A DNA stretch of 64,000 bases from an uncultured Alphaproteobacteria bacterium (GTDB lineage Bacteria; Pseudomonadota; Alphaproteobacteria; Methylaequorales; Methylaequoraceae). A model generated the notes under the pieces. That model was not told the origin of the DNA and made no database searches. It saw only the letters and a program-made list of their open reading frames with translations. Location: the NCBI GenBank assembly GCA_902550225.1, contig CACCYL010000002.1:84089-148088 (forward strand), read 5' to 3'. The translations under genes were made by a program, and so were the position numbers. Below are positions 20,751 through 50,958 of this stretch, one piece after another. Position 1 is the first letter of the stretch, and each line of letters begins with the position of its first letter.

Positions 20751-20840
20751 GGAGAGTTGGCAGAGTGGTCGAATGCATCGGTCTTGAAAACCGACAAGGA
20801 TGCAAGTCCTTCTAGGGTTCGAATCCCTAACTCTCCGCCA
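20751..20840 (+). tRNA. tRNA-Ser (anticodon UGA)
   Basis: Cloverleaf folded by hand: acceptor GGAGAGT/ACTCTCC, anticodon stem TCGGT/ACCGA with loop CTTGAAA, a long variable arm, T arm TAGGG-TTCGAAT-CCCTA, discriminator G and an encoded CCA. Confidence 0.9.
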
Positions 20841-21172
20841 TTTTAGAGGTCATTAGTCGACAATATAGTCGACAACATTAAAAACCCTGTCCTCTGTAAC
20901 GCAGACTCACATTGACTTATAGAAGTTTTATTAGTTGAATAAACTAGTCTTGAAAACCGGCAAAGATGCAAGTCTTTCCAGGGTTCGAATCCCTGACTCT
21001 CCGCCACTTTTGGGGTCATTAGTCGACAACATAGTCGACAACACTAAAAACTCTATCCTCTGAAAGACAGACTCACATTGATTTGTAGAAAATATATTAG
21101 TTGAATAATCTGGTCTTGAAAACCGGCAAGGATGCAAGTCCTTCCAGGGTTCGAATCCCTGTCTCTCCGCCA
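20781..21172 (+). repeat. 166-bp tandem repeat (about 2.4 units). Each unit begins at the tRNA-Ser anticodon loop and contains the tRNA 3' half plus a GTCATTAGTCGACAAYATAGTCGACAACA spacer
   Basis: The period is exactly 166 bp (20781, 20947, 21113). The tRNA 3' halves recur at 20947-21006 and 21113-21172. Confidence 0.85.
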
Positions 21173-26322: not shown

Positions 26323-27357
26323 TTACACACGCCAAACTGTAACACCACCTTGTCTATCCAATCCAGCAAGTGCTTTATCATCTTGACGCCAATATAATTT
26401 TGAAACAGAATCACTTACACTAGTTTCACTTAATCCACTTTCTTCATTTTCAGATTTTAAGTCCCAAAGTACTACAACACCATCCCTTGATCCTGAAGCT
26501 AAATTCATACCACGATTTGAAAAAGCTAGTGATGTAATTGGTTTAGTGTGAAGTTTTAACGATAAAGGAGATGTACCCTCAGGCCCATTGCCTTTGAAAC
26601 TCCAAACTGTTACCTCTTCACTTCCCCCTGTGGCCAAGTAGCTTCCAGTTTCGTCAAAAGACAAAGCTGAGGGTTTTAGTGGATATCCAGACATCATTGA
26701 ATCTTGCTCTGTTGATCTGCGCCAAAAATGAATTGTATTATCTTGGCTTCCACATACGACTATGTCGCTGTTTGGGCTTAATACCATTGAAACTAAAGAC
26801 CCTTTCCATTCTAATTTCTGCTTTATTTTTCCTGAAATACCATCAAAAAAGGAAACACGCCCATAGCATGTTGTAGCTAGTTCTTTTTCGATGGACCAAG
26901 CTAAATTACTTACAGTACTATTATGACTGTCAGATTGCCACATTTCATTACCCTCTTTGGTGTATACATAAATGGTTCGAGAGCAAGAAAACGCCAGCAT
27001 TTCTCCATCTTGTGACCACGATAAATTTTCTATCCAACCATCACCCAAATCAATGACTTTTTCCTTTTTTTTTTGTTGAGCATTCCAAATAATAACCTTT
27101 CCATCCTGACCTCCTGTTGCGAACCTATCAATTAATGGATGGATTGCTGTTGAAAGAATACCACCTTCATGAACTTGTCCTTGAGACCATTTCATTTTAC
27201 CAGATGTACCATCAAAGACATATATCCCTCCAGCAGCATCACAAATTATGAGAGCCTCACCATTAAAGTTCCAACCCCCAGAAATAGCGTAATCATTTAC
27301 ATAGGCTTTCCAACCACTTCTGAGAATCTTTTGGGGTTGTGTTTCCATTATACTCAT
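26323..27357 (-). CDS. WD40-repeat beta-propeller protein
   Basis: Seven WD-like blades ending in W/D dipeptides (WNAQ, WRRS, WDLK, WRV). There is a 4-nt ATGA overlap with the upstream COG0523 gene. Confidence 0.75.
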   Translation of the reverse strand: MSIMETQPQKILRSGWKAYVNDYAISGGWNFNGEALIICDAAGGIYVFDGTSGKMKWSQGQVHEGGILSTAIHPLIDRFATGGQDGKVIIWNAQQKKKEKVIDLGDGWIENLSWSQDGEMLAFSCSRTIYVYTKEGNEMWQSDSHNSTVSNLAWSIEKELATTCYGRVSFFDGISGKIKQKLEWKGSLVSMVLSPNSDIVVCGSQDNTIHFWRRSTEQDSMMSGYPLKPSALSFDETGSYLATGGSEEVTVWSFKGNGPEGTSPLSLKLHTKPITSLAFSNRGMNLASGSRDGVVVLWDLKSENEESGLSETSVSDSVSKLYWRQDDKALAGLDRQGGVTVWRV

Positions 27358-28706
27358 ACAAGACAGTCCTCAAAATCCCTTCGCATTTCCTTTTCATCAA
27401 GGTTGCGTCCAATAAATACAAGCTGATTTCGTCGAGGTAAACTTCCCCAAGGGCGATCAGGTTTTCCACTAAAAATCATATGAACACCTTGAAAAACGAA
27501 TCTATTTGACTCTCCAGCAATACTTAGAAAACCTTTCATACGAAAAATATCTACTCCTTTGTCTCTAAGAAGTTTAGAAATCCAAGCTTGTAGTTTTTGT
27601 TCATCCAAATCACCGTCTTTTTCAATTGAAAAAGAACCAACTTCGTCATCATGTTCATGTTGTGCTACCCATGTTCTTTCTACTTCGACTGCAACTTCAT
27701 CGTTATTATTTACTTCAATTAACTTCATATTGAATTCTTCTGCTGTATGTTGAGCAAAAAGACCTAATTTTGTATCTTTCTCAATTTCAATATAAAATTC
27801 TTTTGGACCAGACGACTCAAGGTTTAAGTTGACATGTTTTCCTTTAGGAATTATTTCTTCTGGTTTGATTGATTTGGCGTCTTCAGCGTAAAGGCGAACG
27901 CAGCGCTCAGCAGAATTTCTCAAACTTACATCATCTGCATTCTGATCAGGCACAACAACAAGAGACATAGAAGGGTCAGGACCCTCAGACATAATGATTT
28001 TATATTTACCACATTTAGTTGGATAAATTCCCGTCCATTCAAATGGATATTCTGGTTCTAGAAAAGTAGGACGGCGTGTAAGAGCCTGGTCTAAATTAAA
28101 GGCACTTTTATCAAGGACAGAGTTAATTGGAACATTGGCCATTTCACTCCTAATGAATTTTGCCATTTTATTCATTTCCCGAAGACGGGCTTCTAAATTA
28201 TCAAGTTCTGAGTCTTTGACAAGATCTGTTTTGTTAAGAACAATAACGTCTGCAAATGCAATTTGTTCCGTACTTTCGTTACTTCTTCCAAGTTGTTGAT
28301 TTATATGAAATGTATCAACAAGAGTTATAATTCCATCAAGAGAAAACTCTGAACTTATCTCATCATCCATAAAAAAAGTTTGAGCCACTGGACCTGGATC
28401 TGCAAGACCAGTAGTCTCTACAACAACGTAATCAAATTTATCACGCCTTTTCATGAGGTTCCCAAGTACTCTAATTAAATCACCACGAACTGTACAACAA
28501 ATACAACCATTGGCCATCTCAAAGATTTCTTCCTCTGCATTTATTACAAGAGCTTGGTCAATACCAACCTCTCCAAATTCATTTTCAATCACAGCTATTC
28601 GTTTTCCGTGTTGCTCGCTTAAGATACGATTTAGTAAAGTGGTTTTACCTGAACCAAGAAAGCCAGTTAGAATGGTTACAGGAACCTTTTTAGATGAACT
28701 ATCCAT
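27354..28706 (-). CDS. COG0523 (CobW/ZigA/YjiA) metallochaperone GTPase, long form with an extended linker
   Basis: P-loop GFLGSGKTT, the family-defining metal-binding CxCC (GCICCT), and a CobW_C-like C-terminus. There is a Zur box upstream of the operon. Confidence 0.85.
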   Translation of the reverse strand: MDSSSKKVPVTILTGFLGSGKTTLLNRILSEQHGKRIAVIENEFGEVGIDQALVINAEEEIFEMANGCICCTVRGDLIRVLGNLMKRRDKFDYVVVETTGLADPGPVAQTFFMDDEISSEFSLDGIITLVDTFHINQQLGRSNESTEQIAFADVIVLNKTDLVKDSELDNLEARLREMNKMAKFIRSEMANVPINSVLDKSAFNLDQALTRRPTFLEPEYPFEWTGIYPTKCGKYKIIMSEGPDPSMSLVVVPDQNADDVSLRNSAERCVRLYAEDAKSIKPEEIIPKGKHVNLNLESSGPKEFYIEIEKDTKLGLFAQHTAEEFNMKLIEVNNNDEVAVEVERTWVAQHEHDDEVGSFSIEKDGDLDEQKLQAWISKLLRDKGVDIFRMKGFLSIAGESNRFVFQGVHMIFSGKPDRPWGSLPRRNQLVFIGRNLDEKEMRRDFEDCLV

Positions 28707-28887
28707 TTTCTTCTCCATTTAAAATTGTCATTCTTTTTCCTAGATCTCTGCGAAGTTTTGTAATTGCATATGGTTTCATATTTTTCCACTTTTTGCATTC
28801 CTCACGTGTTCTGCCACAACCAATACACCATGAATTTTTCCCTATAAATTTGCATATGTCAATACATGGACTTTTATTACGTTTCAT
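28699..28887 (-). CDS. DUF1289-family small Cys-rich protein (YdhL-like)
   Basis: SPCIDIC-x7-CIGCGRT-x-EE-x2-W matches the DUF1289 pattern. It is the first gene of the Zur-box operon. Confidence 0.65.
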   Translation of the reverse strand: MKRNKSPCIDICKFIGKNSWCIGCGRTREECKKWKNMKPYAITKLRRDLGKRMTILNGEENG

Positions 28888-28918
28888 ATGTAAAGTTCTA
28901 AATTTTATTTTTTATTAT

Positions 28919-28939
28919 TGTAATGTTATAACATAACAC
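28919..28939. promoter_or_regulatory. candidate Zur box (TGTAATGTTATAACATAACAC) in the divergent intergenic region
   Basis: Perfect palindrome TGTTATAACA within GTAATGTTATAACATAAC. Compare the proteobacterial Zur consensus GAAATGTTATAWTATAACATTTC. Confidence 0.55.
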
Positions 28940-28998: not shown

Positions 28999-29355
28999 AT
29001 GGATTTAATTATTGAAAATCTTTTAGGCCAAGCAGGCGGAAATTTCAAAGGACTTATATTTGGTTTTGTTCACGTTGCGATAATGATTGTAGGTTATTAC
29101 ACTGGTTTTAGCATAAATAAATTTTTAAAGATTCTTTCCAATGGCTATGTTGCTGGGATCTTTGGCGTAGTTTTGTCTCATATCATTGCAGACATAATTG
29201 CTTGCTATTTAGATCCAGACCTTAGAAAAATGATTTTTGGAGTAGTTATTGGTGGTATAATTCCTCTTTTTTTCATACCAATATTAGAAAGATTTGTTGT
29301 AAAAAGTAAACAAAGTTTTTTAGATGAAACAAAAAAAGAGTTAAATAGATCCTGA
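28999..29355 (+). CDS. small membrane protein (3-4 TM), unknown function, downstream of a Zur box
   Basis: Hydrophobic segments, with Gly-rich GVVIGGIIP. Confidence 0.5.
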   Translation: MDLIIENLLGQAGGNFKGLIFGFVHVAIMIVGYYTGFSINKFLKILSNGYVAGIFGVVLSHIIADIIACYLDPDLRKMIFGVVIGGIIPLFFIPILERFVVKSKQSFLDETKKELNRS

Positions 29356-29484: not shown

Positions 29485-29506
29485 GAAATGTTATATTATA
29501 ACACTT
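29485..29506. promoter_or_regulatory. candidate Zur box (GAAATGTTATATTATAACACTT)
   Basis: It matches the Zur consensus GAAATGTTATAATATAACATTTC at 19 of 22 positions, and lies about 50 nt upstream of the second COG0523 gene. Confidence 0.65.
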
Positions 29507-29555: not shown

Positions 29556-30770
29556 ATGAAAGTTTTAGATAAAAAACTTCCAGTCACATTATTGTCTGGA
29601 TTTCTTGGTGCTGGAAAAACAACCCTTTTAAATCACATTCTTAATAATCGACAAGGTCTAAAGGTTGCAGTTATTGTGAACGATATGAGTGAAGTAAATA
29701 TTGATGCAAATCTTGTTGAGCGTGGAGGTGGTAACTTATCTCAAACTGAAGAGAAACTTGTAGAAATGAGCAATGGATGTATTTGCTGTACTTTACGTGA
29801 AGATCTTTTAATTCAAGTTAGAGAGTTAGCAAATGAAAATAAATTTGATTACCTTCTTATAGAAAGTACTGGTATCTCTGAACCTTTGCCAGTAGCAACT
29901 ACTTTTGACTTTCGTGATGAGGATGGAGCTAGTTTATCTGACGTAGCAAAACTTGATACAATGGTGACTGTTGTGGATGCTGCAAATCTTATAAAAAATT
30001 ACAGCTCTACTGATTTTTTAAAAGATAAAGGAGAAAGTCTAGAAGATGATGAACGAACACTTGTTGATCTTCTTGTCGAACAGATTGAGTTTGCCAATGT
30101 TATTCTATTGAATAAAATTGATTTAATATCCTCTGAAGAATTAAAAACTGTTAATGCAATTATAAGTGGACTTAACACTGAGGCAAAGGTCTTTGAATGC
30201 TCTCATTCGACCGTGAATCTCAAAGAAGTTGTTGGTACTGGATTGTTTGATCTTAAAAAAGCTTACACTCATCCGTTATGGGCAAAAGAACTTTATAATT
30301 TTAAAGATCATCTTCCTGAAACAGAAGAGTATGGTATCACAAGTTTCGTATATTTAGCCCGCGAACCATTTGATCCATCAAAAATCTATAATTTCTTCAA
30401 TCAAGAATGGCCTGGTGTAATGAGATCAAAAGGCTTTTTTTGGATTTCGAGTCGACCTGAATTTATTGGTGAGGTTTCTCAGGCTGGTGCGTTTGTTCGT
30501 CATCAGGGAATTGGAAGATGGTGGACAACTGTACCGAAAGATCGTTGGCCAGAAGGACCTAATTTTGATGCTTTGATCGATAAATATTGGAATAAAGATT
30601 ATGGTGACCGTCGACAAGAAATAGTTTTTATAGGTTTAAAGTCTGAAATGAGTGAAAAGAACATTCGAGAGAGGCTAGACGCTTGTCTGATTAAGAACTA
30701 TCTTGATGATCCTAGTGCATATCATAAAGCTCTAGATCCCTTTCCAGCATGGTTTAAAAAAGTAGCTTAA
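29556..30770 (+). CDS. COG0523 (CobW/YjiA/ZigA) metallochaperone GTPase, standard length
   Basis: P-loop GFLGAGKTT, CxCC motif GCICCT and a CobW_C domain. Confidence 0.88.
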
Positions 30771-42377: not shown

Positions 42378-42998
42378 TCAAATAACATTATTGAAACTTA
42401 ATAATCGAAATTGTCCACCTTTGTGTTTATTATCCTTTTTGGAAACCATTTCAAGAACACTATAGCTTTGATATGTAACTTCCAATCCAATTGCAAATTC
42501 AGGTTTAATTTGTAAAGCATGAGATAATATTGCCCTTATTGTACCTGCGTGTGTTATGATCAAAATACTCTGCCCAGCTTTTACTTTTAATTTTTTGAGC
42601 CAAATCTCTACTCTTTTACTCTGTTCTAGAAAACTTTCTCCATTTGGCGGTGAAAATTCAGGAGAAATAAATGAAAAATTATGTTTGTCTTCATTTTTAT
42701 TTATAAGTTTCCAAATTTCAGAAATTTTTTTTCCTGACCAATCTCCGAAGCTTTGTTCAACCAGATTGTTTTCTGTAATGATTTTTGAATACTGTTTATA
42801 TCTTGATAAAGCTTCTGCTGTTTGAATTGTTCGTTTTAAAGGACTCACATACCAATCACAATTATCTGGTAAACAAGTTGCCAATTTTTTAATTTTATTA
42901 TTTTTTATAATTGCATCTGGATTATGTTCAGAAAAAAAACCCGTAATTTGTTTTACAGGTGCATGCCGTATTAAAAATAATTTCGACGGTTTAATCAA
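42378..42998 (-). CDS. cobC: alpha-ribazole phosphatase (histidine phosphatase family)
   Basis: RHG-type motif (LIRHAP) and a catalytic His (ITHAGT). It is operonic with cobS and cobT. Confidence 0.7.
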   Translation of the reverse strand: MIKPSKLFLIRHAPVKQITGFFSEHNPDAIIKNNKIKKLATCLPDNCDWYVSPLKRTIQTAEALSRYKQYSKIITENNLVEQSFGDWSGKKISEIWKLINKNEDKHNFSFISPEFSPPNGESFLEQSKRVEIWLKKLKVKAGQSILIITHAGTIRAILSHALQIKPEFAIGLEVTYQSYSVLEMVSKKDNKHKGGQFRLLSFNNVI

Positions 42999-43780
42999 TT
43001 TACAACCAGAATCATTATAATATTTCCAAATAAAAACATTATATCTGTTAAGAAAGCGATTGCTCCTAATATGTCTCCGTTAATACCTCCTATGGCCTTT
43101 TTCGATTTTTTTCCAATTAAAAGTATTGTTAAGGTCATTAAGATTATGCCGAATAATATTCCATAGATATCTAACACAAACAATGTAGGTAATATCCAAG
43201 TTAAAGTAGCTATAAATAAACACTTATTTGAAATTTTTCCAACTATACTCGCTGTTTTTGCAAACTCTGAATTATTGAATAAGTTTCTTGCTATCATAAT
43301 AGAGAGTTTGCCGGTAGCAAATCCAATGGAAAAAATAGCAACTAATGGATACCCTGACTCGAATAAAGCTAATATTATTCCTAGTTTAAGCAAAATACCT
43401 AATACTAATGACATTACTCCATAGGTTCCAAGGCGACTATCATGAATAATTTTATCAATATTTCTAGGAGAGCCTCCTGCACCGAGGCCGTCTGCAGTAT
43501 CCGCTAATCCATCTTCATGAAAAGCGCCAGTAAGGAGAACACTTAATGTGATAGCTATAACACAAGATAAATAAACAGGAAGTCCCACTTGAATTAGTAT
43601 ATCCCCTGCACCACCAGATAAAATTCCTACTAAAAAACCAACTGATGGAAAAGACCAACTAGCTCTTGTTAAATCTGGTGCTTTTTTTGAGAAATAGGAC
43701 CATTTTACCGGTATTCTAGTAAAGAACATAAGTGTTGCAAAAAAATCCATTACATATTTATTTTTAAGAAGTAAATGCAT
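42995..43780 (-). CDS. cobS: adenosylcobinamide-GDP ribazoletransferase (cobalamin synthase)
   Basis: CobS-family N-terminus (FFATLMFFTRIPV) and polytopic membrane topology. Confidence 0.8.
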   Translation of the reverse strand: MHLLLKNKYVMDFFATLMFFTRIPVKWSYFSKKAPDLTRASWSFPSVGFLVGILSGGAGDILIQVGLPVYLSCVIAITLSVLLTGAFHEDGLADTADGLGAGGSPRNIDKIIHDSRLGTYGVMSLVLGILLKLGIILALFESGYPLVAIFSIGFATGKLSIMIARNLFNNSEFAKTASIVGKISNKCLFIATLTWILPTLFVLDIYGILFGIILMTLTILLIGKKSKKAIGGINGDILGAIAFLTDIMFLFGNIIMILVVN

Positions 43781-43782
43781 AA

Positions 43783-44805
43783 TTAAATTTTTTTACTTAT
43801 CCCTGCTTCTGAAAACGTCGACATTTTGTTGTGAGTGGTCAAAGCTGCTCTTATTATCAAACTTGCTACTACTGCTCCGCTTCCCTCACCAAGTCTCATG
43901 TTTAAGTTAAGTATAGGCTTTTTTTTAAGATGAGAAATTACTCCTGAATGACCTGGTTCAGAAGATTGGTGAGAAATTAAACAATGATCCAATATATTCT
44001 TTTTAAAAAGAGTTAGAGTAGCAGCAGATACAGTTGTAATAAAACCATCCAATAAAACAGGTATACCTTTGACCCTTGCTGCGATTACTGATCCTGCAAT
44101 TGCTGCCATTTCTCTTCCACCAAATGCCTCAAAGATTTTACCAACAGTTTTAAAATTCTTACCATGTAACTTCAATCCACTCTTAATAATAGAAATTTTA
44201 TGTTTAAGTTTTTGTTTAGAAATGCCCGTACCTAAACCTGTCCATTTTTCAACAGATTCATTAAAAAGTGCGCATGAAATAGCAGTTGCTGCTGAGGTAT
44301 TAGATATACCCATTTCTCCCAATATTAACAAATCACAATCTTTTGAAACAGAATCAAATCCTAATTGCATTGCTTCAATTATCTCGCTTTGTTCCATTGC
44401 TTTTTCTTTTGAAAAATCCTTAGTAGGTGTTTCAAGCTTTATTGGAATAACTGATAATTTTACTTTAGCTAAATTACATAGTTGGTTAATTGCAGCTCCT
44501 CCATTTTTAAAGTTAGCAACCATTTGCTTTGTTACTTCTGCAGGATAAGCAGACACTTTTTTATTTGCTACACCATGATTAGCAGCATAAATGATGCATT
44601 GAAAACTATCCATTTTAGGTTTTTTTCTTTTTTGCCAACCAGCCATCCAAATAGCATAATCTTCTAATCGACCTAAACTCCCAATTGGTTTTGTAAGTTT
44701 ATTTTGATGTTTTCTAGCCAAATTAGCATAATATTCATGGAACGATTTAAGTGGGACTTTGCCATTATTATTTAGCAAAATTTTAATAATATTATCATTA
44801 GACAT
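43783..44805 (-). CDS. cobT: nicotinate-nucleotide--dimethylbenzimidazole phosphoribosyltransferase
   Basis: CobT signature (GEMGISNTSAATAI, GEGSGA). Confidence 0.85.
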   Translation of the reverse strand: MSNDNIIKILLNNNGKVPLKSFHEYYANLARKHQNKLTKPIGSLGRLEDYAIWMAGWQKRKKPKMDSFQCIIYAANHGVANKKVSAYPAEVTKQMVANFKNGGAAINQLCNLAKVKLSVIPIKLETPTKDFSKEKAMEQSEIIEAMQLGFDSVSKDCDLLILGEMGISNTSAATAISCALFNESVEKWTGLGTGISKQKLKHKISIIKSGLKLHGKNFKTVGKIFEAFGGREMAAIAGSVIAARVKGIPVLLDGFITTVSAATLTLFKKNILDHCLISHQSSEPGHSGVISHLKKKPILNLNMRLGEGSGAVVASLIIRAALTTHNKMSTFSEAGISKKI

Positions 44806-46114: not shown

Positions 46115-46498
46115 TTAGTAAAAAATTAAGTCAGCTAAAAAAGCAAAGAAAAAACCTGTGATATAAACTACAAACGAAAAAGTCAATATAACGGAATTTG
46201 TTGACCTTAATTTCAAACATATTTTAGCTTCTGCTGGGTTTGTTGGACATGAAGCATTATTTCTTCTCCATGCCATATAACATGATAAAGCCAACATAAA
46301 ACCTGCTAATATAAAGACATATAATTTATATTTTGATAGAACAACAATCCACGGAAATATTGATACAATGCTAATTAAAGTTGTACCCAATCCAACAGTC
46401 ACAAGCAGAGCTGGTAAAGCACAACAAACTAGCGTACTTAAACTTGTAAATAAACTTAATATTGGTGCAAACAATTCTTTATAGAAATTATTTAACAT
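46115..46498 (-). CDS. MerT-like metal-transport inner membrane protein
   Basis: Three TM helices with a vicinal Cys pair in TM1 (LVCCALPALL) and a second Cys pair in the cytoplasmic loop (SCP...ICL), which is the MerT topology. Confidence 0.55.
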   Translation of the reverse strand: MLNNFYKELFAPILSLFTSLSTLVCCALPALLVTVGLGTTLISIVSIFPWIVVLSKYKLYVFILAGFMLALSCYMAWRRNNASCPTNPAEAKICLKLRSTNSVILTFSFVVYITGFFFAFLADLIFY

Positions 46499-46799
46499 TT
46501 TTTATTTCTCTGACGTCATAACCAGAATCCTTAATCATTTCAGTGATTTTTTCATAACTTAATTTTTGATTTTCTTTAAAATTAATAGTAATCAACATAT
46601 TTTGTAAATTTACTTTTATACCTGCAACTGATTTTTGTTTTGAAAATATTTTTTCAATTGAACGAGCACAAAAATCACACACAAGTCCATTAACGTATAC
46701 GTACAAAATATCACCATTGTATTGTTCATCCGATAGAATTTTACTGCTGTTAAACAATACAAATTGTAAAATAAACAAATAGATAATAATTTTTTTCAT
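46488..46799 (-). CDS. periplasmic heavy-metal-associated (HMA) domain protein, MerP/CopZ-like
   Basis: Signal peptide MKKIIIYLFILQFVLFNSS and the HMA motif GLVCDFC. The start is taken at the internal ATG at 46799. Confidence 0.6.
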   Translation of the reverse strand: MKKIIIYLFILQFVLFNSSKILSDEQYNGDILYVYVNGLVCDFCARSIEKIFSKQKSVAGIKVNLQNMLITINFKENQKLSYEKITEMIKDSGYDVREIKNVK

Positions 46800-46809
46800 T
46801 TTTGCTCCT

Positions 46810-47457
46810 CTAAAATCTTTTAATGAAGTTAAACATAAAGTCTTTGTAGTTATTAAGACCAAACTCTGCTAAATAATCTCCTTTAAAAACTCTCAACATT
46901 GGAGTAAATGTCAAGTTTTTACGACTTCCAGGCATATGATTGGCTTGAAGCATTATCCAAGTATGTAAATATCCATATTCAGCCAAATAAGGAGCCACTC
47001 CAATTCTAAATTGTTGTGAAAAAAATCTATCTATTGAAGATGCATAAGTAGCTTGATTCTGATAACTTGTAAAAAAACTTCTATCTTCCCAATCAAATAA
47101 AATGCCTGTGAAAAGGGATGGTTCAAATTTATTTTCAAAAGCTTCATAATTACTATTTGCTAAACCTATTCCGTTCTTTAAATAAAAATTTGTTTGCGAC
47201 TTAGGTTTATTTAGTCTTTTTATGAGATAATTTAATTGAAGTCCATGAAATTGCCATTCTTTTTCTCTCCAATATTCTGCTCTATAACCTATTGAATAAT
47301 CAATTGATGGACTATAATGCAAATGAAAACTATGTTTACTAAAATCATTTGCCTGCATTAATGTCCAGCCTCCAGGATATGAAATTGGTCTAGCATTAAT
47401 ATCTTTTATGACTATAAAAGTGCACAAAAGAACTATTTTGCATAAAAATATCTTCAT
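46810..47457 (-). CDS. secreted hypothetical protein, aromatic-rich (possible beta-barrel)
   Basis: Signal peptide MKIFLCKIVLLCTFIVIKDINA. Confidence 0.45.
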   Translation of the reverse strand: MKIFLCKIVLLCTFIVIKDINARPISYPGGWTLMQANDFSKHSFHLHYSPSIDYSIGYRAEYWREKEWQFHGLQLNYLIKRLNKPKSQTNFYLKNGIGLANSNYEAFENKFEPSLFTGILFDWEDRSFFTSYQNQATYASSIDRFFSQQFRIGVAPYLAEYGYLHTWIMLQANHMPGSRKNLTFTPMLRVFKGDYLAEFGLNNYKDFMFNFIKRF

Positions 47458-47520
47458 CTTTTCTCCTAATAATCAGAAATAAATTCAAGACAAACTTTGT
47501 CTCAAAACTTTGAAATAAAA

Positions 47521-47856
47521 TTAGGAAAAAAGTTTTGGCGGGGGTGGTCTTAGTAAAGGGTTTAGGGAATCAAATGTAAACGTTAAGTTATCAAAAAAAG
47601 AATTAGCGATTTGAGCATCTAAAATATAGTCAACTTGAAATGTATTTATTTGAGTATAATAACACTCACAATTAAAACATACGTCTTCAACATCATTTGA
47701 TTGAGAATGACATGATTTGTTAGAGTGAGCATTATTTGTTTCATTAAGTTGAGAATATTTTTTATCTAAACAATACGAAATAACTTTAGCTGAGATCGTC
47801 AAACTAGACAGACTAAATATTAAAACACTTAAAATAAAAAATTTTACGTGACTCAT
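47521..47856 (-). CDS. small secreted Cys/His-rich protein
   Basis: Signal peptide followed by CHSQSNDVEDVCFNCECYY and a PPPP tail. It is divergent from the Zur-box promoter. Confidence 0.45.
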   Translation of the reverse strand: MSHVKFFILSVLIFSLSSLTISAKVISYCLDKKYSQLNETNNAHSNKSCHSQSNDVEDVCFNCECYYTQINTFQVDYILDAQIANSFFDNLTFTFDSLNPLLRPPPPKLFS

Positions 47857-47909
47857 AATTACAAACTATTAAAAGTTTTAAAAAAATCAATGATTTTATT
47901 TGATTGGGG

Positions 47910-47941
47910 TTGACATAGAACAAAGTGTTATAATATAACAT
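47910..47941 (+). promoter_or_regulatory. sigma70-like promoter (TTGACA -35, TAATAT -10) overlapping a Zur box (GTGTTATAATATAACAT)
   Basis: TTGACA at 47910-47915, then a 15-nt spacer and TAATAT at 47931-47936, which lies inside the box. The palindrome TGTTATAATATAACA at 47927-47941 overlaps the -10 and sits 36 nt upstream of the TBDT start codon. Confidence 0.65.
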
Positions 47942-47976
47942 AAATTAATATCAACATCTTATTTAATGGAAAATCA

Positions 47977-49941
47977 ATGTATAAAATAGTTACCTTCGTC
48001 TTGACTGTATTACTTGTAGCTAATGTAAACGCTGAAAAGTTAGAATCTATATTTGTTGCACCTGATGTATTTATAACATCTAAAATTAAGCCGAGTACTG
48101 AATATGAAAGTGATAGGGGTAATATTTTATATGATTCTCATGAACTAGAAAAAAGCAGACAATACTCTATTGGTCAGATGCTCAAAGATTTACCAGGAAT
48201 TGCTTCACAAGGTCTTGGTAACGCTTCACGTCCAATAATCAGGGGTCTTGGTAATTCGCGAGTTAAAATTTTACAAAACAGTTCTTCACTCGGTGATGTT
48301 TCCGAATTTGGTGAGGATCATATTGTTGGATATGATCCATTATTAATTGATAAAATAGAAATTATTAAGGGGCCCGGTACGTTACTTTATGGAAACAATG
48401 GTTTTGCTGGAGTTGTAAATATTATAAACCCTTTAATTGCAGTAGATAAGCCTCTTTCTGACGAAAACGTCCAATTAGGTTTTGGATACAAGACCTCAGG
48501 TGGAGAGTTGGGAACAGCATTAAAACTTGGTAAATCTGTGGACAATTTTACTGTTAGAGGTTCTGGAAGTTTTGTAAGTGCAGGACCTTACGATTTAGCA
48601 AATGTTTCAACTAAGCAAGCAAATTCATCAAAGTTCATGACATCTGGTGGCGTTGGAATAACATACAATGATGGTCAGAACCATTTTGGAGTTTCTTTGG
48701 ACAAACTTGAAGCTGTATATCAAAATCCTGGTCCTGAAGGTGAAGAAAATATGACATCGCTTAATCCTACAAGAAATACAATAAATTTTGATTCTTCACT
48801 TGCATTAAATTATTTAATCTTTGAAAAGTTTAACCTAGAAGGCACTGTTTCTGAATATAATCATGCTGAAAGAACAGGCGATGGGAACAATCATAATATA
48901 ACATTTTTCAATGATATATATGAAATAAAAACATCACTGAATCACAAATCTCTATTCAATCAAAATGAAGAAGGATTAATAGGTTTTCATTTTATGAATA
49001 AAAATCAAGGTGCAACAGGAGCTGAGGAAGGTCATTTAACTCCAACGAAGACCAATAGTTTTGCTTTATTTGCTCTCGAAAAATTAAAATTTGATTTATT
49101 TGATTTAGATCTTGGTGGTCGAATTGAATCTGTAAATTTGAAAACAACACAGCATGAGCAAGGTTTTTTCCCTGCTGCATTTTCTTCCACTGTCAAAAGA
49201 GAAATCATTCCAAACAATAGTGTATTTTTAGGTTTTGATTTTACACAAAGAGCACCGAATGCTGTCGAACTATTCGCAGACGGTCCTCACCACGCTCTTG
49301 AAAATGTTGAGACAGGTAACGTGAACTTAGAAAAAGAGAGTTCTTACAATGTATCACTTGGATATAATTATGATGAAAATCTAAATAAATTAAAAATTGA
49401 AGCTTATTATAACTACATTAATGATTTTATTGCTGCAGATAGAAACGGTAATACTCAAAACGTTGAAGGTGAAGATTTTAATGTTGTTATTCACGATCAA
49501 TATAATGCATTATTTACTGGAGTAGAATTAACTGGTCAGTATGGCATAACGAAATTGGATGATTTTGATTTCCTTGCTAATTTTGTAGGGGAATTTTTGA
49601 AGGGTTACAGAACATCCAATGACAAGGCTATAACTAGAATTCCACAATCAAAAGTAAATGTTGGTTTACAACTCATTAATGAGGAATGGGATACTAATCT
49701 TAAATATTATCATTATTTTGATAAAGAATTCACAGGTCCCTTTTATACAAGAACAGGTGGTCACTCAAGATTAGATTTTGATCTCACAAAAGATTTCATG
49801 TACTCAGATTTATCTGGCCATGCAATGTTTAGTGTAACCAATCTTCTGAATACAGTTGGTCGTGATCATCTTGAGGCAAAAAAGGGCCAAGTTCAATTAC
49901 CCGGTAGGAGTTTTAATTTTAATTTAAAGCTATTCTATTAA
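47977..49941 (+). CDS. TonB-dependent outer-membrane receptor, candidate zinc (ZnuD-like) transporter
   Basis: Signal peptide, plug region, and a 22-strand barrel ending in aromatic residues (LKLFY). A Zur box lies in its promoter. Confidence 0.8.
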   Translation: MYKIVTFVLTVLLVANVNAEKLESIFVAPDVFITSKIKPSTEYESDRGNILYDSHELEKSRQYSIGQMLKDLPGIASQGLGNASRPIIRGLGNSRVKILQNSSSLGDVSEFGEDHIVGYDPLLIDKIEIIKGPGTLLYGNNGFAGVVNIINPLIAVDKPLSDENVQLGFGYKTSGGELGTALKLGKSVDNFTVRGSGSFVSAGPYDLANVSTKQANSSKFMTSGGVGITYNDGQNHFGVSLDKLEAVYQNPGPEGEENMTSLNPTRNTINFDSSLALNYLIFEKFNLEGTVSEYNHAERTGDGNNHNITFFNDIYEIKTSLNHKSLFNQNEEGLIGFHFMNKNQGATGAEEGHLTPTKTNSFALFALEKLKFDLFDLDLGGRIESVNLKTTQHEQGFFPAAFSSTVKREIIPNNSVFLGFDFTQRAPNAVELFADGPHHALENVETGNVNLEKESSYNVSLGYNYDENLNKLKIEAYYNYINDFIAADRNGNTQNVEGEDFNVVIHDQYNALFTGVELTGQYGITKLDDFDFLANFVGEFLKGYRTSNDKAITRIPQSKVNVGLQLINEEWDTNLKYYHYFDKEFTGPFYTRTGGHSRLDFDLTKDFMYSDLSGHAMFSVTNLLNTVGRDHLEAKKGQVQLPGRSFNFNLKLFY

Positions 49942-49947
49942 TAAAAT

Positions 49948-50313
49948 ATGTTTAAGTATTACTCTTCATACACATTGTTATGGATAGGCCTAACACATCT
50001 GTTGTGCTGTGGTTTGCCTTTGACGTTATCATTTGTTTCATTATCTTCAAATGCATTATTTTTGGACTCACTCCTTTTAAACTCTGAATTATTAGAAGCT
50101 GCTGAACCATATCTCTTTGCAATTACGACGCTTATATTTTTATTAATAATTTCTTTTGAGATCTACAATAAAAAAATAAAGTGCCAAGATGATGAATGTG
50201 ATACTGAAAAAGAATGCAGTACGACCACTAAAAAAATTAAGACCAATCTTATTCTCGCAAGTATTCTTTATACTCTCAATAGTTCAATCTTTTTATCAGA
50301 AGTTATCCTCTGA
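49948..50313 (+). CDS. second MerT-like small membrane protein
   Basis: TM1 with LLCCGLPL and a loop bearing KCQDDECDTEKEC, the same architecture as the protein at 46115. Confidence 0.5.
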   Translation: MFKYYSSYTLLWIGLTHLLCCGLPLTLSFVSLSSNALFLDSLLLNSELLEAAEPYLFAITTLIFLLIISFEIYNKKIKCQDDECDTEKECSTTTKKIKTNLILASILYTLNSSIFLSEVIL

Positions 50314-50316
50314 TTT

Positions 50317-50958
50317 ATGATTTTAAATTGTGAAAATATGAAATCCTTAATGGACTTCAAACATAATAACCATCAATTAGCAATTTTGAATCGTCAAACT
50401 CCCGAGAATTCCAATGTTTTCTTTAGTGAATTAAACATAACTTCTTTTTCAACTTCAGGTTATGTTTCATTAGAGAATAGTTTAAATGACATTAGCAAGC
50501 TTACAGAAGAAAAACTTCCATCAAAAATTAGGAAAAACTTATTTTTTGAAAAATGGTTAAATGATATGAGTGAAATTTGTAAAATGTTTTGTTTATTTCA
50601 AGAAAAAGATAAAATAAGTTTTTGGTTGGGATCCGAGAGAGGTTGTAAACGTTTTCATGTTGATATGGTCCCTTATAGATGTTTAATAACCTATTCCGGA
50701 CAAGGTACAGAATTACTACCTGATAATGCAGCAGACAGGAATGCTTTTATTAGTGGAAAACCAAATGAAAATATAATTAAAGACAGATCAGCGATAAGAT
50801 ATTTAAATAAATGGGATGTTGCAATTTTTCGTGGTGGAAAACATGGAATTTTACATCGAACTCCAGAGTCAGCACTAAATGATAGATCTTCAATTTTAAT
50901 GAGGCTTGATGATTCTTCTTTTTTAGAGCAAATAGAAAAAATAAACAATGTTAATTAA
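50317..50958 (+). CDS. hypothetical cytoplasmic protein (possibly DUF1826-like)
   Basis: No clear motif. The start codon lies 4 nt after the stop of the upstream ORF. Confidence 0.45.
   Translation: MILNCENMKSLMDFKHNNHQLAILNRQTPENSNVFFSELNITSFSTSGYVSLENSLNDISKLTEEKLPSKIRKNLFFEKWLNDMSEICKMFCLFQEKDKISFWLGSERGCKRFHVDMVPYRCLITYSGQGTELLPDNAADRNAFISGKPNENIIKDRSAIRYLNKWDVAIFRGGKHGILHRTPESALNDRSSILMRLDDSSFLEQIEKINNVN

Follow-up and report, generated by a model that had tools for sequence, protein, structure and literature searches.

A ZnuD-like receptor operon and a divergent cassette of leader, barrel, HMA and MerT-like genes around a putative Zur operator in an uncultured alphaproteobacterium

Two divergent operons around one operator

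Here, we analyze 64,000 nt of DNA (the window) from an uncultured alphaproteobacterium, in which a Zur-type palindrome lies between the gene of a ZnuD-like TonB-dependent receptor and a group of small genes for exported and membrane proteins with cysteine motifs. It is compared with related and comparison loci from other genomes, designated L001 and so on. Seven genes form two divergent operons separated by a 120-bp spacer, and the region is bounded at either end by convergent genes. The explanation that, taken as a whole, we consider somewhat better than an even bet is that the locus consists of two separable metal-handling units placed back to back, and is not a single system. Sequence and comparative evidence identifies the right unit as a predicted Zur box and promoter with a three-gene operon. 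The four-gene composition of the left unit is directly apparent, and from it and its relatives we infer the function.

The initial annotation had described positions 46115-50313 as a single mercury-type relay serving the receptor. All the sequence elements that it quoted were found where it had placed them, but the gene of a 215-aa barrel protein (46810-47457) and a DUF1826 gene (50317-50958) had been overlooked. Because DUF1826 ends the receptor operon, the whole unit is 46115-50958 rather than 46115-50313. The Zur box, the ZnuD-like receptor, the exported HMA protein and the probable remote MerT relatives of that relay were all recovered; its unity was not, as the left-hand genes make up a cassette complete in itself, outer-membrane channel included. 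The seven genes are:

47856-47521, minus strand: 111-aa Cys-rich signal-peptide protein (probable leader open reading frame, ORF)
47457-46810, minus strand: 215-aa signal-peptide protein with terminal Phe (outer-membrane barrel)
46799-46488, minus strand: 103-aa HMA-domain protein with signal peptide
46498-46115, minus strand: 127-aa MerT-superfamily inner-membrane protein, paralogue 1
47977-49941, plus strand: 654-aa ZnuD-like TonB-dependent receptor
49948-50313, plus strand: 121-aa MerT-superfamily inner-membrane protein, paralogue 2
50317-50958, plus strand: 213-aa DUF1826 protein, final gene of the receptor operon

Genes are tightly packed on both strands, with gaps of 63 nt and 10 nt and an 11-nt overlap on the minus strand and gaps of 6 nt and 3 nt on the plus strand.

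The predicted Zur operator and the receptor promoter

There are 36 nt between the end of the palindrome TGTTATAATATAACA and the receptor ATG at 47977, as initially annotated. Judged by its sequence and conservation, the palindrome is a Zur operator and no chance match. Only 0.003 exact copies of the 15-mer are expected in the AT-rich window. When up to one mismatch was allowed, three sites were observed against 0.05 expected, and 200 Markov simulations never gave more than one. The palindrome agrees with the E. coli Zur motif TRWNAYRWTATAWYRTNWCA at 18 of its 20 positions (motif from PMC6103462). Among the 30 loci with sequence upstream of the receptor, 28 have the box there with one mismatch or none, while the flanking spacer diverges. 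This conservation, together with the two near-identical window copies ahead of COG0523/ZigA-type genes, upholds the Zur box of the initial annotation. The sites concerned are:

47926-47940: Zur operator, 7-1-7 palindrome TGTTATAATATAACA; exact match, kept upstream of the receptor in orthologues
47910-47915, plus strand: -35 hexamer TTGACA of the receptor promoter, read directly
47934-47939, plus strand: candidate -10 hexamer TATAAC within the operator, 17-18-nt spacer, deduced from the conserved distance between TTGACA and the box
28919-28938: second Zur operator, two overlapping copies, preceding a DUF1289-COG0523-WD40 operon
29489-29503: third Zur operator, 52 nt ahead of the ZigA-like GTPase gene (29556-30770)

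The company kept by the operator is equally informative. The ZigA-like gene scores 585 bits with the NCBIfam ZigA model (cut-off 600). The accessory genes typical of Zur regulons, namely ZigA/COG0523 GTPases, DUF1289, DUF1826 and ZnuGHI-type ABC-FtsX-DUF3299 genes, have the same operator ahead of them in the window or in related loci: DUF1826 has its own box where it has been relocated (L019 and L028), and a box also precedes the ABC-FtsX-DUF3299 operon in L001 and L016. A DUF1826 homologue, FTN_1758, is experimentally Zur-regulated in Francisella (PMC5786701), and the gene in the window matches Pfam DUF1826 at 3e-24. These are ordinary Zur regulon members, and we use them as evidence for the identity of the operator; the Zur box and the ZnuD-like receptor are likewise each ordinary on their own. 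No zur gene was found in the 64-kb window. In four related loci (L008, L009, L021 and L016) a Fur-family gene adjoins the box or receptor, and it scores 82-100 bits as Zur and below 30 as Fur.

The promoter was originally read as TTGACA and TAATAT with a 15-nt spacer. Both strings are present, but TAATAT is a less likely -10 than TATAAC. TTGACA sits 9-10 nt ahead of the box across orthologues (10 nt in the window), and TATAAC inside the box is therefore taken as the -10. Twenty of the 30 orthologous loci have the exact hexamer TTGACA at 8-11 nt upstream of the box. The consensus scan, which demands T at position 6, missed TATAAC. The same arrangement, with the -10 inside the box, is found at znuK and znuL of Caulobacter (PMC4176598).

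The surroundings of the second operator include two further details. In the minus-strand operon at 26323-28900, a 62-aa DUF1289 ORF (Pfam, 3.8e-13) and a 454-aa COG0523 GTPase are joined by a 344-aa WD40 beta-propeller, with a 4-nt overlap of its gene and the GTPase stop; such a protein is unusual in a bacterial zinc-starvation operon. On the opposite side of the 28919-28938 box, a 118-aa membrane protein (28999-29355, plus strand), whose sole match is a weak one to a holin family (E 7e-4), may be the product of another divergently Zur-controlled gene.

The ZnuD-like receptor

The receptor has the plug and 22-strand barrel of TonB-dependent receptors (Pfam Plug, 4e-15; TonB_dep_Rec_b-barrel, 5.6e-24). 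ZnuD ranked top of 23 NCBIfam families with 217.7 bits, followed by a runner-up at 93 bits, and the equivalog cut-off of 950 was missed. A PDB search returned ZnuD (4RDR) at E 1.3e-29, and OprC and BtuB at about 1e-7. When aligned to 4RDR with HMMER, residues D114, H115, E298 and H438 fall on the buried zinc site of ZnuD, and they are invariant in 12 homologues. The alignment uses a chain offset of +14 and the ZnuD ligands H100, E340 and H499 plus the Asp preceding H100. The site is printed as D90/H100/E340/H499 (PMC4557270), and D90 is taken here as D99. With ZnuD as best NCBIfam and PDB match and the zinc-site residues kept, the initial proposal of a ZnuD-like outer-membrane receptor is borne out, and zinc transport is predicted from these similarities.

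Like ZnuD of Neisseria meningitidis (4RDR), by far its best match, the receptor combines a plug and a barrel and has a buried Asp-His pair in the plug with Glu and His in the barrel. It is shorter, with 654 aa against 734 mature residues, and does not have the long His/Asp-rich extracellular loop 3: in the 4RDR alignment the equivalent stretch is about 38 residues, compared with about 92, and is without the His cluster. The gene neighborhood differs as well, as the receptor gene is followed here by a MerT-like gene and DUF1826, whereas ZnuD stands alone or beside znuABC-type genes. ZnuK and ZnuL, TonB-dependent receptors under Zur control in Caulobacter crescentus, are among the closest known systems.

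A genome-collection scan found 29 orthologous receptor loci, 64-98% identical, all from uncultured marine Alphaproteobacteria. The suggestion that the receptor is unusual in a Pelagibacter-type background was not upheld: at least 29 species-level genomes of this uncultured alphaproteobacterial lineage, which is not shown to be Pelagibacter proper, have kept it. SAR11 genomes are reported to have minimal metal-uptake inventories (PMC4771312). No tonB or exbBD gene was found among the 38 window ORFs scanned; the first 21 kb were outside the scan, and absence from 64 kb means little.

In L008 and L009 the receptor has neither a MerT-like nor a DUF1826 partner, and a 163-aa cupredoxin-like exported protein comes next. 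Both loci have, upstream of the receptor, a binding protein of the tungstate type, a protein with a metallo-beta-lactamase fold and a second receptor-sized protein of 768 aa with a signal peptide. The tungstate-type binding protein adjoins the receptor in L008 and L024. Together with low GC and contigs of about 1.1-1.5 Mb, it is the basis for guessing at a HIMB59/AEGEAN-169 affiliation.

The MerT-like membrane proteins

Both small membrane proteins noted by the initial annotation are present, one with the motif LVCCALPALL (46115-46498) and the other with LLCCGLPL and KCQDDECDTEKEC (49948-50313). Their likeness to MerT stands as a probable remote relationship, with hhalign values of 83-88% against MerT and 97.6% to each other. 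Against a 3-sequence MerT profile, the 127-aa protein gave 83% (E 9e-6) and the 121-aa protein 87.6% (E 3.5e-6), and the comparison between the two reached E 3.5e-12. The Tn21 MerT sequence used here is 100% identical to an annotated merT. In these alignments the Cys-Cys of the first transmembrane helix (TM1) and the Cys pair of the cytoplasmic loop are in register with the MerT motifs in both proteins. Profile comparison supports the view that the two are mutual paralogues and probable remote MerT relatives.

AlphaFold2 modeled the 127-aa protein as three long helices with moderate confidence (predicted local distance difference test score, pLDDT, 72), and a Foldseek search of the PDB with this model returned meaningless helical matches alone (E >3). 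The invariant residues of its family are the CC pair (C25-C26), C84-P85 and C94. The family comprises 579 cluster representatives, all unnamed and none with a Pfam domain. The 121-aa family is small, with 42 representatives among 1.84 billion proteins. The TM1 CC pair is universal among them and the loop Cys cluster is found in most. Distant members have a DCHDTGCxHxPC loop, and one reaches Pfam MerT (PF02411) at E 0.007; the contexts of such distant relatives (L050-L052) had no Zur box and were uninformative. In the window, the 121-aa gene starts 6 nt past the receptor stop, and it follows the receptor in 20 of the 27 complete orthologous loci. Zur control of MerT-like genes applies to this right-hand gene, which lies in the Zur-controlled receptor operon; the left-hand gene is not demonstrably so controlled.

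The resemblance to the MerT/MerP relay of Tn21/Tn501 lies in the pairing of an exported CxxC HMA protein with a three-helix membrane protein of about 120 aa carrying Cys pairs in helix 1 and the cytoplasmic loop. Unlike mer operons, the window locus has no MerR, MerA or other mer gene, and the Pfam MerT and TIGR MerP thresholds are missed. The absence of MerA and MerR noted at the outset was confirmed by tblastn of both against the 64-kb window, with no match at E<=1. The HMA motif is GLVCDFCA here and GMTCxxC in MerP. In addition, the cassette includes an outer-membrane barrel and a leader ORF that mer operons do not have, and a second MerT-like paralogue is tied to the zinc receptor. Zinc uptake via MerT-like proteins is plausible on these sequence similarities.

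The left-hand cassette

The overlooked 215-aa protein was predicted with high confidence (pLDDT 89) as a 12-stranded outer-membrane barrel, closest in fold to autotransporter barrels, KdgM, COG4313 channels and PcoB. It shares 5-10% identity with such 12-strand barrels (autotransporter beta-domains, KdgM/NanC porins, COG4313, PcoB) and differs from them in having no passenger domain and an invariant N-terminal RPVSYPGG motif of its own. The family has 233 cluster representatives, all unnamed and without a Pfam domain. The exported HMA protein with the motif GLVCDFC (46488-46799) is present as described by the initial annotation (Pfam HMA, 6e-9), its signal peptide being judged by eye. Its NCBIfam scores are 48 bits for CopZ, below the cut-offs, and 19.5 bits for MerP (TIGR02052, cut-off 92.55). 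All 23 homologues have the motif G(L/M)VC(D/E)FCA. We considered the acidic residue of CDFC as a zinc marker and dropped it, since the copper chaperone Atx1 of Synechocystis has the motif CEAC and an acidic residue at this position is therefore not diagnostic.

The left-hand genes had been taken as accessories of the receptor, a role at odds with their distribution. Eight cassette contexts from other Gamma- and Alphaproteobacteria (L041-43, L047-49, L053-54) have no receptor nearby, and in the three that were scanned for a Zur box (L041-43) none was found near the cassette. Seven of the eight (L041-43, L048-49 and L053-54) match the window in the identity and order of all four genes; in L047 there are the barrel, HMA and MerT-like genes, and a leader was not found. 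Gene content and order thus mark the left unit as an autonomous, widespread four-gene cassette. In L012 and L026 the cassette proteins are 93-97% identical to those of the window and the adjacent receptor 73-74%, a mismatch from which it follows that the units recombine independently. This points to recent recombination with a breakpoint in or near the Zur-box spacer. A tblastn search with leader and barrel against 72,556 plasmids gave no match.

Within the lineage, the cassette is found in zinc islands in three arrangements: divergent from the box (12 loci), behind a CDF gene by the receptor operon (L014), and at the end of a zur-ABC-DUF3299 island (L016). In L054, it adjoins CDF and RND efflux genes. 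A minus-strand TTGATA-16-TATAAC overlaps the box in the window. We consider that in this lineage the cassette was recruited to zinc islands and probably shares the Zur operator in the window.

Some of these contexts have features of their own. The zinc island of L016 (5293-13770) has a CDF gene encoding only the transmembrane domain, divergent from the receptor across a Zur box, then a PepSY protein, the zur gene, a second box and the ABC-FtsX-DUF3299 operon, with the cassette convergent at the end. Its ABC permease, partly masked with N, contains a long HDSHEDHDSHEE repeat. The Zur box and the cassette leader of the L001 group are 580 bp apart, and the non-coding DNA between them has a hairpin with a T-run after it (L001, 7650-7720, minus strand), where a short transcript under Zur control could end. 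Directly upstream of the leader in L043 (5380-5580), in a genome of 55% GC, about seven tandem copies of a unit of about 22 nt (caaYMRggtatttataatgatttt) could be a binding array for a regulator.

The probable leader ORF

The small Cys/His-rich secreted protein of the initial annotation exists (47521-47856), with a signal peptide and six Cys, but it is likely a regulatory leader peptide and not a scavenger. Comparative analysis indicates that it is most likely a metal-sensing leader of the CutF/CruR type. In an alignment (A5) of twelve homologues from diverse taxa, all twelve have a hydrophobic N-terminal signal. A Cys (C49), usually followed by His, is invariant, as is a C-x2-3-C-x-C motif (C60, C63/C65). 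Toward the C-terminus, a PP pair is invariant, with Arg or Lys shortly before it and exactly four residues between it and the stop. The gap from the Cys motif to PP is 40-45 residues in all twelve. The leader is the first gene of the cassette wherever it was found, and none was found in L007, L014 and L047.

The RNA evidence for this assignment is stronger than the family signal from DUF2946. Folding of the window sequence gave the following elements, the Pro codons being read directly:

47536-47547, minus strand: four consecutive Pro codons (R-PPPP-K), candidate ribosome arrest site; PP columns invariant
47520-47532, minus strand: anti-Shine-Dalgarno (anti-SD) arm formed by the last leader codons and stop, CUUUUUUCCUAAU
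47484-47506, minus strand: inner 10-bp hairpin in the leader-barrel spacer
47458-47470, minus strand: Shine-Dalgarno (SD) arm of the barrel gene, AUUAGGAGAAAAG, occluded by the fold

The in silico fold that pairs CUUUUUUCCUAAU with AUUAGGAGAAAAG has an energy of -22.2 kcal/mol (z -3.9), and none of 200 shuffles was as good. Sixteen orthologous spacers, with GC from below 30% to 55%, were folded, and in 15 of them the minimum-energy structure has the ribosome-binding site of the barrel gene paired to the end of the leader, in most cases enclosing an inner hairpin. This hairpin is kept in nearly all 16 despite differing sequence, the stem in L042 being 3 bp. When all in-frame windows of the leader are ranked by complementarity to the SD, the tail comes first in 7 of 11 independent lineages. 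The middle base of the stop codon covaries with its partner, UAA pairing with UUA, and UGA with UCA in L041 and L048.

These features can be compared with two characterized leaders. CruR of Bordetella pertussis is first in its operon and has an export signal, a CXXC motif and RAPP three residues from the end, with a spacing of 45 residues (PMC9426467). In cutF-cutO of Rhodobacter capsulatus, a stem-loop shields the ribosome-binding site of the next gene (bioRxiv 10.1101/2022.11.11.516240). The leader found here shares with CutF and CruR its place as first gene, the export signal, a CxxC/CxxxC-type motif with an extra upstream Cys, a Pro motif fixed a few residues before the stop, a Cys-Pro spacing of about 40-45 and the shielding stem-loop (as in cutF-cutO). 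It differs in having (R/K)xPP plus four residues rather than RAPP plus three, and a DUF2946 signal below threshold. The barrel, HMA and MerT-like downstream genes are not among the CutF/CruR partners listed in the consulted parts of the two papers.

A second unit of leader and barrel-like gene is present in the same lineage (L017, 9630-10987; L018, 9606-10976; L024, 10647-12004). A signal-peptide protein of about 100 aa with KCDFHC, ending in SPPFFS, is followed directly by the gene of a 340-aa outer-membrane-like protein (HGPISIMGDHIHKK..., ending in GWQY). These proteins matched no Pfam or NCBIfam family, DUF2946 included in the Pfam scan.

Proposed mechanism and alternative explanations

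A working model can be drawn from these parts. The Zur site overlaps the -10 of the promoter that would drive the receptor, MerT-like and DUF1826 genes, and when zinc is scarce Zur would leave the operator. The receptor would then bring zinc into the periplasm, and the MerT-like protein would move it over the inner membrane by thiol-ligand exchange, from the membrane Cys-Cys to the cytoplasmic Cys cluster, and on to cytoplasmic acceptors that might, for example, be DUF1826 or COG0523 GTPases. The cassette would be a complete envelope-spanning relay for a thiol-loving metal, formed by the 12-strand channel, the HMA chaperone and the MerT-like protein. Its expression would be gated by the leader: the Cys motif would be at the periplasmic side of the translocon while the ribosome sits on the PPPP arrest site (47536-47547). 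A ribosome paused there, by analogy with CutF, would cover the anti-SD in the last leader codons and so free the ribosome-binding site of the barrel gene, and tight coupling would extend the freed translation to the two genes behind it. As for the metal of the cassette, zinc (or a zinc/cadmium type) and copper seem to us equally credible, each falling somewhat short of an even chance, and another metal is about half as credible as either.

Several observations weigh against this reading. None of the curated family thresholds for MerT, MerP, ZnuD and DUF2946 is reached. For MerT in particular, the thresholds of NCBIfam and Pfam are both missed, with no Pfam match and NCBIfam E-values of 0.02 for the 127-aa protein and 0.0017 for the 121-aa protein (MerTP). 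Seven orthologous receptors have no MerT-like neighbor, the L028 orthologue has lost the cytoplasmic Cys cluster, and a thiol-redox or regulatory role of the MerT-like proteins, in place of transport, is conceivable. DUF2946 (PF11162, cut-off 23.7 bits) was seen below threshold in 2 of the 12 leaders (best E 0.0052, 18 bits), the window protein giving no match, and a conserved terminal Ser codon could explain part of the anti-SD complementarity. No Zur box accompanies the cassette in L041-43 or L014, and in the L001 group there is none for 580 bp; Zur control of the left unit is accordingly proposed for the close relatives of the window only. The minus-strand -35 is not conserved beyond the closest relatives, so that Zur control of the cassette is something we infer.

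The remaining contrary points concern copper, and they lead to the alternative that the cassette is a copper system (for cytochrome oxidase supply or periplasmic Cu(I) handling) with a copper-sensing leader, brought near the zinc receptor by gene shuffling in a small genome, so that the right operon alone would handle zinc. The characterized CutF and CruR leaders sense copper, and most Cys-type CutF-like leaders head copper operons (PMC9426467; bioRxiv 10.1101/2022.11.11.516240). The best NCBIfam matches of the HMA protein are CopZ models, and PcoB is among the proteins that the barrel resembles. Elsewhere the cassette has copper-type neighbors, namely AhpC_TSA (L043, L049), a PCuAC-like protein (L053), and CtaA with FTR1/cupredoxin (L042); AhpC_TSA and PCuAC are listed as CruR-operon partners (PMC9426467). 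We nevertheless consider this alternative rather doubtful, although for the cassette it is the main one. CutF-like leaders are stated to be not all copper-specific, and in Caulobacter a DUF2946 gene heads the Zur-bound czr/zntA operon. The three zinc-island arrangements within the lineage, the CDF or RND genes beside the cassette in L014, the L001 group and L054, and the presence of a MerT-like paralogue in the Zur operon also argue for zinc. Those same CDF and RND genes speak for a further alternative, a role in tolerance or export in which the HMA protein would take up metal exported by CDF and the barrel would release it. A CDF gene immediately precedes the cassette in L014, and one is found close to it in the L001 group and in L054, the latter also having RND efflux genes next to the cassette; CutF-like leaders often head detoxification operons; and a MauE/glutaredoxin-like gene and peroxiredoxins beside the cassette in L049 and L043 would also suit periplasmic thiol-redox maintenance. 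In either case the MerT-like proteins would not be importers. This is improbable in our view, as the MerT-like paralogue lies in a starvation-induced Zur operon. To our knowledge, MerT and MerP of the mer system are the only characterized relatives, and they import metal. Open-ocean bacteria, moreover, face metals at picomolar levels.

The two other alternatives concern how the units are joined and what the receptor carries. The initial annotation saw one integrated, Zur-controlled zinc scavenging system in which metal passes from the receptor to the HMA protein (as MerP) and on to both MerT-like proteins, with the Cys/His protein as an extra secreted binder. Every part of it was individually confirmed, a single palindromic operator occupies the 120-bp divergent intergenic region, and the back-to-back arrangement is kept in 12 related loci. 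An integrated system is unlikely all the same: the left genes recur without the receptor in eight loci of other taxa (three of them scanned, and without a box), the cassette owns an outer-membrane channel, the Cys/His protein has the hallmarks of a leader peptide, and in L012 and L026 identities of 93-97% for the cassette and about 74% for the receptor bespeak independent recombination. It might finally be argued that the receptor imports another ligand, of the haem or cobalamin type, and that the palindrome serves a different Fur-family regulator. The next-best NCBIfam families are haemoglobin/transferrin and haemin receptors, homologues are named "iron complex outermembrane receptor" by JGI, and cobS and cobT lie 3 kb from the receptor locus. 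Against this, ZnuD outscores every other family by far and its zinc ligands are invariant in the receptor family, the box precedes the canonical Zur targets ZigA-like, COG0523, DUF1826 and ABC-DUF3299, and the neighboring Fur-family genes score as Zur and not as Fur. We regard a different ligand as very improbable.

Significance

Open-ocean waters hold extremely little free zinc and copper, and in streamlined bacteria few metal transporters have been recognized. We found no description in the literature of a MerT-like gene in a Zur operon or of a leader-gated barrel-HMA-MerT cassette. As a tentative proposal, which we think has well under an even chance of being right, the left unit would be an undescribed four-gene pathway that carries a thiol-loving metal over the whole envelope and is gated by a nascent exported sensor peptide, and the right unit would pair a ZnuD-type receptor with a MerT-type partner for thiolate-based zinc import. 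If true, a MerT-type zinc route could replace ZnuABC or ZIP transporters in streamlined ocean bacteria. Import of nutrient metals by MerT-like proteins would also mean that a class of transporters otherwise known from mercury resistance alone has a physiological role.

The cassette family is large, with 579 clusters for the membrane component alone, and has no Pfam or NCBIfam model. The leader would widen nascent-peptide metal sensing of the CutF/CruR type to a new operon class, with an anti-SD built from the last codons. In addition, Hogle et al. report a copZ metallochaperone gene in 54% of SAR11 genomes and copA in none (PMC4771312); the HMA gene of the cassette might account for such orphan copZ calls.

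Other observations in the window

Left of the cassette, at 42378-44805, lie a CobC-like phosphatase gene, cobS and cobT, for lower-ligand cobalamin assembly. Their presence suggests cobalamin salvage in a streamlined genome. ARAGORN detected two tRNA-Ser(TGA) genes, at 20751-20840 and 21085-21172, 250 nt apart, of which the first alone reaches the Rfam tRNA gathering score.

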